24,112 bases of DNA from a virus (Duplodnaviria > Heunggongvirae > Uroviricota > Caudoviricetes): the IMG/VR virus record IMGVR_UViG_2526164662_000032, positions 1 through 24,112 of that record, one strand, 5' to 3'. The first letter of the stretch is position 1, and each line of letters begins with the position of its first letter. Positions 21,001-24,000 of the stretch are shown one piece after another. Made by a program: the position numbers.

Positions 21001-24000
21001 CATTATCAGGATCTGCGATGAGCATTTTTTGATAGAGAAACAGAACTCGCCCCATGCCTTCAGCTTCGCCATATTTTTCAATGAATCTCCATTCGACATG
21101 GTTTTGCAGGGCAATGCGAAGTGGCCCTGGGTAGATACTCAGGCAACCATGTTTACCCTTGTAAATAACTGCGCGATCTGTAGTTCCATTATCGTTAGGG
21201 ATATCAATGGTGCCGTTCTTGCCTTCTTCTTCATTTATAAACGTCGTCACATACAGCCATCGCCATTGAGCAATCTTCATATCGACTGAAAATCGTCCCA
21301 GTAATCCGGCATCATCGGCTTCAGCAATACATTGCATAATTCTTAGACCGTGAGAATTTGGATAATCGTATTCACCATCATTAAGCCGCTGTACGGCCTC
21401 AACATAATCAATGGTTGTATTGCCAATTTTTATGCCATGTGGCGTAACTTCTGGTCGGAACTCTGAATGATTCATAATGTTTGCTCCTTTGCTGGTGGAA
21501 TAATCGTGTAACCCGCTCTTTTTGCCATCCACAGAAATGTATCCATGCAGCCAACGAATTCATTATCCAACAGATGTTTTGAGTAAATTACTTTCCCATT
21601 TTCAATGGTTAGCAACACTCTTACTTTTTCGTGTATTACCCCCCCCTGCTCAGGCTCATTCTGCATTTTATTTCGTGCTGATGTCTCCATTATTTTATCT
21701 CCCATAAGCCTTGCGCAAATACAGGTTGGCTATATGAAGATAAGAATCTCCATGTTGTGCAATGAGGCAGGCAGTTTTATACGATGCCTTATGTTTCAGG
21801 AAGGTCATAACATAATCTCCTGCGAATAAAGGTTGCAACAATCCCCGGCGATAAAACCGTAATAAACATTCAGGGAATATTTATTGTTATTGCGCTAATT
21901 CTTTTTCGGCAGCAGCTTTTGCATATTCACATGCAAAATTCAGAATTTCGCTGCCAAGTACTTTTGTTTCGTGATTACTGGACATACGTAATACCTGTGT
22001 TGCATGCAATAAATGATAAACATTTACCGCAAATGAATCAGGCTCCAGAACAAATGCCTTCGTAATTATCTTGCTGTGAGGTTGTTTCTGTCATTGCTCC
22101 TGAAGTGCATGCGAGCCTGTTTTTGACAATTCTCTTTCCTCTAATCACTATATCGGCAACATCTATTGCCTTTACAACCTCCGGGAGAAGTTCCTGGTTT
22201 GTATAACCAAAGTTATCAACATGGAGAACAGTTATGTTTTCGAACTTTTTCATGGCTTCCTCAGCTGACATGTATGTTCTGTTATATAGTGAGTCTCAGA
22301 AGTGTTTTCATATTGAGACTGTTTCCGCAATGGTTGAGAGAAATGTCCGTATGTATCTTGATGGCAGAAGTGGCGATTATGTCACTCTGGCTTTCGGCTC
22401 CTCAGTTGAAGAACTTCGTGAAATTCGCTCTCAGCTTGTAGAAAAGCGCGGCGATGTTATTGCCCCATGGTATCTTATGAAGCCCGGGCAATAGGCCCAC
22501 CAGTTAACAGCCACATCGGATCGCAACCAAGCGCATTAGCCAGTGGAATGATCTGGCTTGCGGGGACTTCGCAGATACCGCACTCCCAGTCGTTTATGGG
22601 GTCGTTGTAGGTGTGAATCATGCGTGCCAGGTCTGCTTCTGTCAGTCCAACTTTTTTACGTGCGGCTTCTATACGTGTGCCAATGCTTTCCTCCTGGATG
22701 TCTGGCTGATTTACGGTAACAGCAGCAGCGCTATTTTTTTCACTCAGCAGAGAAAGAGGATCGCATCCCAGGACATTTGCCATGGGGATTAGCATGCTGA
22801 TGGTTGGTTCGTATTCTCCACTCTCCCATTGCAGGATAATCTCTTCGTCAAGATCGAGCAGTCTGGCCAGTTCGGTGGTCGTCAAACCGCAGGCTTCACG
22901 TTGGGTGCTAAGGTTAACCATGTATTCAGGCTGTTTTTCAGGAGCAATATCTTGTCTTGAATAAAAAATTGCGTTTTTTACTTCGAAGGCGTAATCAGTG
23001 GCCAAAGCAACTATGGTATCGCCAATTTCACAGTATTCATGGTTATTTGATGTAGCTAATAAATATCCAGCTTCAAAAAGAACGGCGGTATTTTTTAGCG
23101 CATCCAGTGGGTGCATGGAAAAGCCATTAAAAGTCAGAGTCGGTTTTGCCCTCATCTCATTAACTCCATCTATTTGGAATGAGAGCATAATAGAACCTGC
23201 TATAAATTATGGCAATAGCAAGTTCTATTTTTTTGGGTGATTTTTGTTACCTTATTGATATTTAATAAAAAATATTTCCTTTTTGATTCAAAGCAAAACT
23301 GAGTACCAGAATAAACGCCCGATAATATCAACCTTATCAATACTGGTTTCTTCATCTGGGTATTCGTCACTGTTGTAACTGCGGATAATCAATTTTCCAC
23401 CTGGTCTTCTGTGTAGTTGTTTAATGCGCTTTAGTTGTCCGCCACAACCATCATCTTGTCCAATAGCATACAACTTACCATCGACAATTCTTTTGTTGTT
23501 GGTGTCAATAGCTACGGTCGTTCCATCAGGGATTATAGGCTCCATACTGTTACCAGTCGCCGGAAAACATAGCACTCCACTTCCGTCAGAGTTTGCGCCG
23601 ATCCGACGAAGGGTAGCTTTTGAAAACCTAAGTTTTAATCCATTATGATCTTCGCTAATCACTTTCCCAGTACCACACGCAAACTCAATATCTTTAAGAA
23701 AAGGGACTTCAACCTCATCATCACTTAGAGGCGTGTGCTCATCCCACGACTCTATCTTCCCCCATTCGGATTTTGGTGGAATAGATGGTTTCTTGTTCTC
23801 TGCCCTCATAGAACCTACACCAGAACTTAACCATTCCGGTGTAACACCGAGAGCATTAGCGAGATCGACAATTTTCGTTGTTCCTCTTGCATTCCCCGAT
23901 GCTATTCGCCAAATGGTCGGTTGAGCCATGTTTGCTGCCTTAGCCAACTGAGCTTGGCTCATTCCCATTTCGTACATTGCAAAGTTGAGCCTATCTGCAA

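Follow-up and report, generated by a model that had tools for sequence, protein, structure and literature searches.

A tandem helix-turn-helix gene in the position of lambda N and a two-gene cassette with an unannotated member in the early-left operon of a phiP27-like prophage

We analyzed the immunity region of a lambdoid prophage in IMG/VR virus record IMGVR_UViG_2526164662_000032 (24,112 nt, the whole of which is called the window here), in which Escherichia coli chromosome (the cmoA/cmoB/yecN side) is joined to a prophage inserted at yecE. Two neighboring genes are the subject: one on the minus strand, which encodes a 226-amino-acid (aa) protein with two XRE-type helix-turn-helix (HTH) units (the tandem-HTH gene), and a small open reading frame (ORF) on the opposite strand (the plus-strand gene). 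The region corresponds to the left half of an immunity region of lambdoid type whose rexAB slot is empty, and the tandem-HTH gene stands, behind putative operators, at the head of the early-left operon under repressor control, the slot that N occupies in lambda. Judged from its pattern of substitution, the plus-strand ORF is a real protein-coding gene under purifying selection; together with a divergent gene for the N-terminal domain of L08 (L08N), it constitutes a two-gene cassette whose conservation, by sequence and gene order, extends from Escherichia to Serratia, Cedecea, Limnobaculum and metagenomic contigs. The explanation we consider best overall, with a probability of about 0.55, is that the N slot encodes an HTH modulator acting through protein contacts, and that the sieB slot holds an accessory gene expressed in the lysogen, with the early L08N protein as its counter-factor.

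Gene order and operators around cI

Read leftward, the elements are cI, two operators together with the promoter PL, the tandem-HTH gene, the convergent plus-strand gene, and then the remaining early-left genes as far as xis and int. The S24-type repressor that an earlier note on this DNA had placed directly upstream of the tandem-HTH gene is present: the cI-like gene (23288..24034, minus strand) encodes a 248-aa protein with an XRE HTH and an S24 peptidase domain (Pfam HTH_3, 7e-07; Peptidase_S24, 5e-15), and is named repressor CI in the record of phage ASU11. Four sites in the prophage part of the window, all of them flanking cI, match the 16-bp palindrome AATAG-N6-CTATT with no more than one mismatch; the same pattern search in the ASU11 locus (L001) yielded four clustered sites against 0.34 expected. 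On the OR side, one site is exact (24096-24111) and one carries a single mismatch (24038-24053); with a further site that has two mismatches (24071-24086), this cluster spans 24038..24111. On the OL side, AATAGAACCTGCTATA (23189-23204) and AATAGCAAGTTCTATT (23214-23229) were recovered both as inverted repeats and by the pattern search, and bear the same motif as the OR-side sites.

These OL-like operators lie over a PL-like promoter on the minus strand (23187..23215; 10/12 matches in the promoter scan), one over its -35 (TTGCCA, 23215-23210) and one over its -10 (TATTAT, 23192-23187), the two boxes being separated by a 17-nt spacer. A PR-like -35, TTGCAT, is found at 24085-24090; its -10, TATTAT, is cut by the end of the window, and the full promoter was therefore read in ASU11 (L001 5829-5880), where it takes the form TTGCAT-17-TATTAT and is built of an operator, CTATTGCAT, 9 bp, an operator, and then a TATTAT that shares the CTATT half-site. 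The layout operator/-35/9 bp/operator/-10 is thus common to PL and PR. Likewise, in the heteroimmune relatives that were read (phiP27, a Stx2a phage, PhiR49_2 and a Citrobacter prophage), each phage's own operator motif is present on both flanks of the repressor gene. The earlier note had taken the position of the tandem-HTH gene to be that of rexAB. Because copies of the operator and a twin of PR separate it from cI, it is instead to be placed first in the early-left operon, and its equivalent slot in lambda is that of N.

In lambda we read the order cI, rexA, rexB, OL1-3/PL, nutL, N (minus strand) and sieB (plus strand; 34482-35036). The window resembles this arrangement in that the tandem-HTH gene directly follows repressor operators overlapping a leftward promoter, and that a convergent, counter-oriented gene comes next. 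The products differ: N is a small, basic, arginine-rich antiterminator, whereas the tandem-HTH protein is an acidic, three-domain XRE protein of 226 aa, lacking a match to the N_peptide Pfam models (PF25694/PF11438), and the leader of its gene, only ~25 nt long, has no room for a nutL. In a metagenomic relative (L175), an S24 repressor is followed by a true N (PF25694/PF11438) and then by a convergent homolog of the plus-strand gene, a layout which places the tandem-HTH gene in the N slot and the plus-strand gene in the sieB slot.

The prophage is of the phiP27/ASU11-like lambdoid type. Positions 21800-24112 share 99.8% identity with Escherichia phage ASU11 and 99.9% with prophages of several Shiga toxin-producing E. 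coli genomes, and the left arm of the prophage resembles Shiga toxin (Stx) 2e phage phiP27.

The tandem-HTH protein and its match to repressor type

The tandem-HTH gene (22475..23155, minus strand) is a member of the phiP27 L10 family (phrog_4739, phrog_4836), and its product has an isoelectric point (pI) of 4.4. The earlier note's description of a 226-aa ORF with two XRE units was borne out: two matches to HTH_3 (PF01381) pass the Pfam gathering score, and a ribosome-binding site (GGAG, 23167-23164) lies 8 nt ahead of the ATG. A longer alternative ATG start exists at 23188; the 226-aa form is favored because the -10 of PL overlaps that alternative codon. RefSeq WP_001201870 starts at the same codon as the 226-aa form; a literature search with this accession as the term returned no paper.

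The AlphaFold model (mean pLDDT, the predicted local distance difference test, 67; domains 65-85) has N-terminal hairpins, a disordered linker, XRE unit 1, a second linker and XRE unit 2, in that order. The N-terminal domain (aa 1-80; 22916..23155) is modeled as a beta-hairpin (residues 7-14) and a helical hairpin (16-34/39-67) with pLDDT of 65-84. The earlier note had been unable to place this domain and had proposed domain and structure searches of it; these gave the helical hairpin in the model and no Pfam, NCBIfam or PDB match for the ~80 residues. XRE unit 1 (aa 81-137; 22745..22915) and XRE unit 2 (aa 156-219; 22499..22690) align with 45% identity (E 4e-15), indicating an internal duplication. 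Single-unit forms of the family (136-169 aa), which include L10 of phiP27 itself, look like chimeras of units 1 and 2. In two such single-HTH loci, L004 (5146-5258) and L003 (5149-5267), the HTH gene as called has a longer C-terminal tail, which runs ~113-119 nt into the 3' end of the oppositely oriented plus-strand gene. Members of the family are frequent in E. coli prophages, Stx1a, Stx2a and Stx2d phages among them, where they bear generic annotation only. The PADLOC matches of the tandem-HTH protein involve the XRE HTH units alone and are to HTH-bearing regulator components. While the earlier note had allowed for a match to a well-characterized regulator, no characterized homolog of either the tandem-HTH protein or the plus-strand protein was found in Pfam, NCBIfam, PHROG, PADLOC or among annotated relatives.

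Across 161 loci, the type of the N-terminal domain corresponded one-to-one with the type of the repressor (7x7), with zero exceptions. Identity between the seven N-terminal types is 16-43%, against 84-95% in the adjoining XRE unit 1, and within a single N-terminal type the downstream part varies freely, having one or two XRE units and either possessing or lacking the plus-strand gene. The one-to-one typing, combined with this free variation downstream, argues that the N-terminal domain belongs to the immunity module.

The two XRE units are acidic, with net charges of -8 (unit 1; family median -6) and -4 (unit 2), as opposed to +4 for the DNA-binding domain of 434 cI and +6 for that of P22 C2. 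The recognition helices read LDLDEEIILQWE in unit 1 and TYNDPINDWE in unit 2, so that base-contacting Gln and Arg residues are replaced by Asp, Asn and Cys: Gln28/Gln29/Gln33 of 434 align with Asn/Asp/Asp, and Gln37/Arg40 of C2 with Asp/Cys. The basic DNA-binding surface expected of operator-binding XRE repressors is therefore not found in the tandem-HTH protein. Its fold matches include both MOR and CI of TP901-1, and, like MOR, the product of the opening gene of an early lytic operon, it is an XRE-fold early protein encoded beside the repressor gene. Rasmussen and colleagues reportedly found in 2020 that MOR acts by binding the repressor and not by competing for DNA. The resemblance has limits: MOR is a single domain of ~70 aa, divergent from cI, from a phage of Gram-positive bacteria, whereas the tandem-HTH protein comprises two acidic XRE units and an immunity-specific helical hairpin, and its interaction with cI is putative.

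A conventional regulator would be the strongest competitor, although we regard it as rather unlikely. According to this alternative, the tandem-HTH protein is a sequence-specific DNA-binding protein expressed from PL (a second repressor, a CII-like activator or a Cro-like protein), and its hairpin serves dimerization only. Two good HTH_3 matches are in keeping with such a function, a near-invariant HTH core would suit a conserved DNA target, and PHROG 4836 and the ASU11 record offer the labels "CII-like regulator" and "putative CII repressor", respectively. These labels, however, are generic annotation rather than experiment; in addition, D/E occupy base-contacting positions in both of the strongly acidic units, the protein has no Phage_CII match in Pfam, the gene is not where cII would be, and no conserved candidate site was identified. 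Canonical CII was ruled out, as PF05269 is not matched, the gene lies to the left of cI, and the true CII of L175 lies to the right. The literature on CII of Stx phages (PMC3355084) concerns a different gene, right of cro, and the Eru work on Stx-phage regulatory regions, in the passages found, deals with genes on the replication side of cI (PMC8951638).

The tandem-HTH protein is thus a member of the XRE fold that is neither N, CII nor Rex. Because both XRE units are acidic at base-contacting positions and the N-terminal hairpin tracks repressor type, we infer that a protein-contact role, as a MOR-like modulator or antirepressor of the cognate repressor, is the most likely one, somewhat ahead of classical operator binding. 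Antirepressor control, which was among the functions suggested in the earlier note, may be exerted by this protein.

The plus-strand gene and its divergent partner

The earlier note had reported a 74-codon ORF on the opposite strand, within what it took to be a non-coding gap of 220 bp (22254-22474). The ORF was confirmed, and longer starts exist: it comprises 86 codons from ATG 22234, 80 from 22252 and 74 from 22270, ending in each case at 22494. The gap did not prove to be non-coding. From ATG 22234, 7 nt downstream of GGAG (22223-22226), the gene (22234..22494, plus strand) would encode an 86-aa protein of the phrog_6104 family (E 4e-41), and the gene shares its final 20 nt with the 3' end of the tandem-HTH gene. 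Homologs with 58-100% identity, differing by conservative substitutions, are present in Escherichia, E. albertii, Salmonella and Citrobacter. In pairwise comparisons of diverged copies, dN/dS was 0.12-0.16 in the plus-strand frame, and 0.9-3.8 in the other frames except for the antisense frame that shares its wobble positions, where no ORF of at least 40 aa lies opposite the gene; third-codon positions accounted for 27/45 and 37/66 of the differences. AlphaFold predicts a beta-beta-alpha-beta-alpha protein with pLDDT >90 for residues 13-75.

A profile search of 1.84 billion representatives recovered 351 relatives at E <=0.001, most of them 60-110 aa long, with the motif hVLLWSxxQxxFHIE...M..N...DY..LA, in which the Ser is invariant and Phe-His near-invariant. 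The precomputed Pfam annotation of these 351 is empty and no source name goes beyond "hypothetical protein". Pfam and NCBIfam searches with the plus-strand protein, L08 and distant relatives likewise found nothing; the plus-strand protein had no match among the PADLOC defense models and none at E <0.1 in a BFVD fold search, a GIY-YIG nuclease fold being a weak structural lead. A profile scan of genome contigs with the alignment of the plus-strand ORF gave no confirmed locus. The gene carries no annotation in the ASU11 record or in RefSeq: a 221-bp query matched 215 of 5,426 complete E. coli genomes, and no coding sequence was annotated among the 30 matches listed. RgdR, considered on account of a KRGD in the plus-strand protein, was ruled out by comparison of published properties, RgdR having 99 aa, a pI of about 10 and its RGD at residues 20-22 (PMC3378721), whereas the plus-strand protein has a pI of 5.3 and an RGD that is near the C-terminus and is not conserved.

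About one quarter of the matching E. coli genomes keep only the first 84 nt, with the same endpoint as phiP27. This isolated Stx2e-encoding phage (L006 3434-3741) carries just the first 36 codons, from which it follows that the plus-strand gene is probably dispensable; unrelated sequence with an annotated 59-aa L09 comes after them. In two further prophages (L085 3183-4420 and L086 1761-3001), the gene is split by insertions of ~1.24 kb, which encode two different IS3-family transposases and lie at different positions within it.

By position, the plus-strand gene resembles sieB of lambda and P22, in that it is a lone counter-oriented gene immediately after, and convergent with, the first PL gene, and transcription from PL would be antisense to it. 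The orientation of P22 sieB is reportedly that described by Ranade and Poteete in 1993. SieB is a membrane protein; it has ~184 aa, as opposed to the 74-86 aa of the plus-strand protein, which is predicted to be soluble and alpha/beta. Moreover, the plus-strand gene has a separate and conserved divergent partner gene, whereas P22 has the internal Esc product. The plus-strand protein is therefore analogous to SieB in position and, as far as can be judged from sequence, unrelated to it in sequence, size and predicted fold, and it falls into no described family; superinfection exclusion may be attached to the gene on the strength of its position only. In P22, sieB is expressed in the lysogen and is controlled by sas, an antisense RNA derived from PL (PMC12197685, PMC7067206). 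A second point of comparison is provided by the antisense morons of prophages (e.g., STMMW_20121 of ST64B), which are likewise small genes on the opposite strand of a lytic operon, presumably with a promoter of their own; in Salmonella prophages, genes antisense to lytic genes are typically accessory loci expressed in the lysogen (PMC7067206). The plus-strand gene differs from these in forming a tight divergent pair with a lytic-strand gene.

That partner is the L08N gene (22038..22253, minus strand; phrog_5451, 2e-43), which encodes 71 aa from ATG 22253, with GAGG 4 nt upstream. Relative to ASU11, phiP27 and strain CD45, the window has an extra base at 22049/22050 (plus strand AGAACA vs AGACA), and the resulting frameshift falls exactly at the junction of the two domains of L08, ending the protein early as a stand-alone L08N; a C-terminal-domain remnant remains out of frame at 21887..22037 (minus strand), as seen in alignment with the intact 121-aa L08 of ASU11 and phiP27. 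Among tandem-HTH-family loci found through XRE unit 1 in viral contigs, 52/80 lack the plus-strand gene, whereas a search through the plus-strand gene gave 86 loci, almost every one of them with a divergent L08 homolog. Because these co-occurrence counts differ, the conserved partner of the plus-strand gene is L08N and not the tandem-HTH protein. In prophages of Limnobaculum, Serratia and Cedecea, and in the N-carrying phage, the plus-strand homolog is the lone counter-oriented gene of the early-left operon, within the interval from repressor to int, and its divergent partner, of 54-71 aa, is homologous to the N-terminal half of L08. Counter-orientation was found in 6/6 distinct prophage lineages examined. 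Partners from six genera align with the consensus MIKFENVTV...ADIVI..G.IVKNRL, in which K-N-R is invariant; two short metagenomic contigs retain a weaker version of L08N, and in two other contexts it is replaced by a downstream protein of ~193 aa. Where the cassette is missing, the HTH gene is followed immediately by a small independent gene for the C-terminal half of L08, suggesting that the cassette behaves as an inserted unit.

The 5' ends of the pair are closely apposed. Their coding sequences overlap by 20 nt in the window and by 2 nt in one metagenomic contig, while another such contig has 27 nt between the start codons. In the Limnobaculum, Serratia, Cedecea and N-phage loci this spacer measures 10-11 nt, and a single short stretch within it serves as a GGAG-type Shine-Dalgarno sequence on each strand; the transcripts of the two genes would consequently be able to pair over both ribosome-binding sites. 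For the plus-strand gene, a candidate promoter (22123..22151, plus strand; -35 TTGACA at 22123-22128, 17 nt, -10 CACTAT at 22146-22151) lies inside the IVKNR/DIV codons of L08N, and the arrangement is retained in the Citrobacter, Serratia, Cedecea, Limnobaculum and N-phage homologs. Between this candidate and the plus-strand start codon is a terminator-like hairpin (22181-22197, plus strand), CCGGGAGAAGTTCCTGG followed by TTTGTAT, which is the only such hairpin in the region, a count within chance expectation.

Which member of the cassette is the effector is less easily read. Pointing to the plus-strand product are its absence from prophages without L08N, when L08 occurs alone, together with its truncation in phiP27 and the IS3-family insertions in two prophages. 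Pointing to a partner-binding antidote or regulator are the fusion of the plus-strand domain, N-terminally, to an XRE HTH in protein P0165 (L177 2771-3268) and its occurrence as two tandem copies in single proteins (P0193, P0259 and P0272). The P0165 gene adjoins genes for an integrase and an IS91-type transposase. The fusion and the tandem copies underlie a rival that we hold to be improbable, though not by much more than the conventional regulator: the plus-strand protein would be the antidote to an early, host-toxic L08N, and the lysogen would use it to neutralize leaky L08N, as a safety catch of toxin-antitoxin-like character. The strictly conserved divergent pairing with overlapping 5' ends would suit such a device, HTH fusions and tandem copies are typical of partner-binding or antitoxin-like modules and not of toxins, and the plus-strand protein is acidic. 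However, L08 is found without the plus-strand gene in 8/80 loci and with a mere truncated copy in phiP27, and the antidote gene would have been broken by IS3-family elements in two prophages; the failure to find the plus-strand gene without L08N in prophages looks, conversely, as if its product were the dangerous partner, and L08N has no match to a toxin family in Pfam, NCBIfam or PADLOC.

Outside prophages (L171 4001-5921 and L179 800-2581), a family member is followed by a conserved unknown protein of ~193 aa, and in one of these two contexts a nucleotidyltransferase/HepT-like toxin-antitoxin pair comes next; a further member, in L182, adjoins an Mrr-type restriction endonuclease. In the window, the other prophage genes from int (18240-19526) to cI are all on the minus strand. 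They include two uncharacterized genes of the early-left operon, one at 20894-21532 (phrog_1515, 212 aa) and one at 21472-21705 (phrog_340, 77 aa), the latter with weak similarity to an anti-repressor PHROG. The 181 bp between the L07-like and L08 genes (21706-21886) hold no gene annotated in ASU11 or RefSeq, and an 18-nt segment (21872-21889) is 83% complementary to 23263-23280, just past the cI stop codon. An Rfam scan of 21500-24112 gave zero matches, and terminator searches after cI, after the tandem-HTH gene and after the plus-strand gene found none that was convincing.

Proposed mechanism, alternatives and implications

We postulate that in the lysogen the repressor would bind at 23189-23229 and keep the tandem-HTH gene and the remainder of the left operon off, while the plus-strand gene would be expressed from its own promoter, PL being silent. 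After infection or induction, the tandem-HTH protein would be made early; by contacting proteins it would modulate or counteract the cognate immunity repressor, much as MOR does in TP901-1. Upon induction, convergent transcription from PL, along with RNA pairing, would shut the plus-strand gene down. Its product would be an accessory factor of the exclusion type and the early L08N protein the counter-factor, following the sieB/esc/sas logic of P22.

Several observations weigh against this proposal. The operators are assigned from the distribution of the motif, and the agreement in type between the N-terminal domain and the repressor could simply come from their physical linkage within the immunity module. 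In XRE unit 2 the first helix is still basic (RIEAARKK), and the unit is 35% identical to the DNA-binding domain of C2, so that some DNA binding is possible. No intrinsic terminator was predicted between cI and PL (minimum free energy -4.3 kcal/mol, z +1.26), and read-through from PRM into the tandem-HTH gene in lysogens is therefore conceivable. As to the cassette, BLASTP gave no alignment of the plus-strand protein with SieB at E<=100, and the protein has no membrane segment; the -10 of its candidate promoter is weak (3/6), and conservation of that promoter is inseparable from that of the DIVI/IVKNR codons it overlaps; the gene is cut short in phiP27; and the sequence features bearing on effector and counter-factor point, as described, both ways.

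A more specific joint version, which we put forward only tentatively, is that the HTH protein is an immunity-specific adaptor or antirepressor and that the plus-strand gene and L08N form an undescribed two-gene switch cassette. The fast-diversifying N-terminal hairpin would recognize the cognate repressor (or Cro), while the double-XRE body, acidic and invariant, would either act as a DNA mimic or dock on a conserved host factor. In the cassette, the mutually antisense 5' ends, which include both ribosome-binding sites, would set an exclusion or abortive-infection factor made in the lysogen against an early-expressed partner conferring self-immunity.

Of the remaining alternatives, a rexAB-like role for the tandem-HTH gene has a small chance of being right: it would be an accessory gene on the cI transcript of the lysogen, providing superinfection exclusion or a second immunity. 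Like rexAB, it adjoins cI directly and on the same strand, and with no intrinsic terminator predicted after cI some read-through could be imagined. Yet a complete operator and promoter unit, the twin of PR, intervenes between the two genes, and repressor bound there would tend to block read-through; the rex genes of lambda lie upstream of OL/PL, between it and cI, and are transcribed from PRM. The tandem-HTH protein has no similarity to the Rex proteins, and its PADLOC matches are confined to the XRE units.

Still less plausible is a functional pair of the tandem-HTH protein and the opposite-strand ORF, whether toxin-antitoxin-like or regulator and target. The earlier note had seen here an accessory module that might include such a pair; accessory content in the immunity region stood up, the pairing did not. 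The two genes are adjacent and convergent with a 20-nt overlap, an L10-family HTH gene adjoins the ORF in nearly all of the 86 loci in which the ORF was found, and a distant relative of the ORF domain is fused to an XRE HTH. Nevertheless, the HTH family does without the ORF in most of its loci (52/80), the ORF family has no recorded XRE-HTH neighbor in Limnobaculum, Serratia or the N-carrying phage, and a convergent arrangement is no operon. A type II toxin-antitoxin system of this composition was rejected on the same counts of orientation and co-occurrence and for want of any toxin family in Pfam, NCBIfam or PADLOC. It is very improbable that the 220 bp code for no protein and hold a regulatory RNA or a terminator region, the ORF being fortuitous: neither RefSeq/PGAP nor the ASU11 authors annotated a gene there, but the low dN/dS, the predominance of third-position changes, the conservative substitutions across genera, the confident AlphaFold fold and the 351 profile matches with a conserved motif all contradict it, and the stretch has neither an Rfam match nor a stable RNA fold.

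The plus-strand gene is a conserved protein-coding gene that is missing from RefSeq wherever it was checked, and from deposited phage records, and neither Pfam, NCBIfam nor the PDB has an entry for its family of 351 cluster representatives. In a large group of phiP27-like and long-tailed Stx1/Stx2 prophages, the early-left operon opens not with N but with an acidic double-XRE protein, one domain of which belongs to the immunity module. If this protein modulates the repressor, it bears on prophage stability and, in Stx phages, also on toxin release; if the adaptor version is true, the lysis-lysogeny switch of these N-less lambdoid phages would include a positive feedback at the level of protein. 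Exclusion genes are known to reside in the sieB slot, and the widespread cassette that occupies it here, with its mutually antisense 5' ends, is a candidate for an unrecognized exclusion or addiction module.

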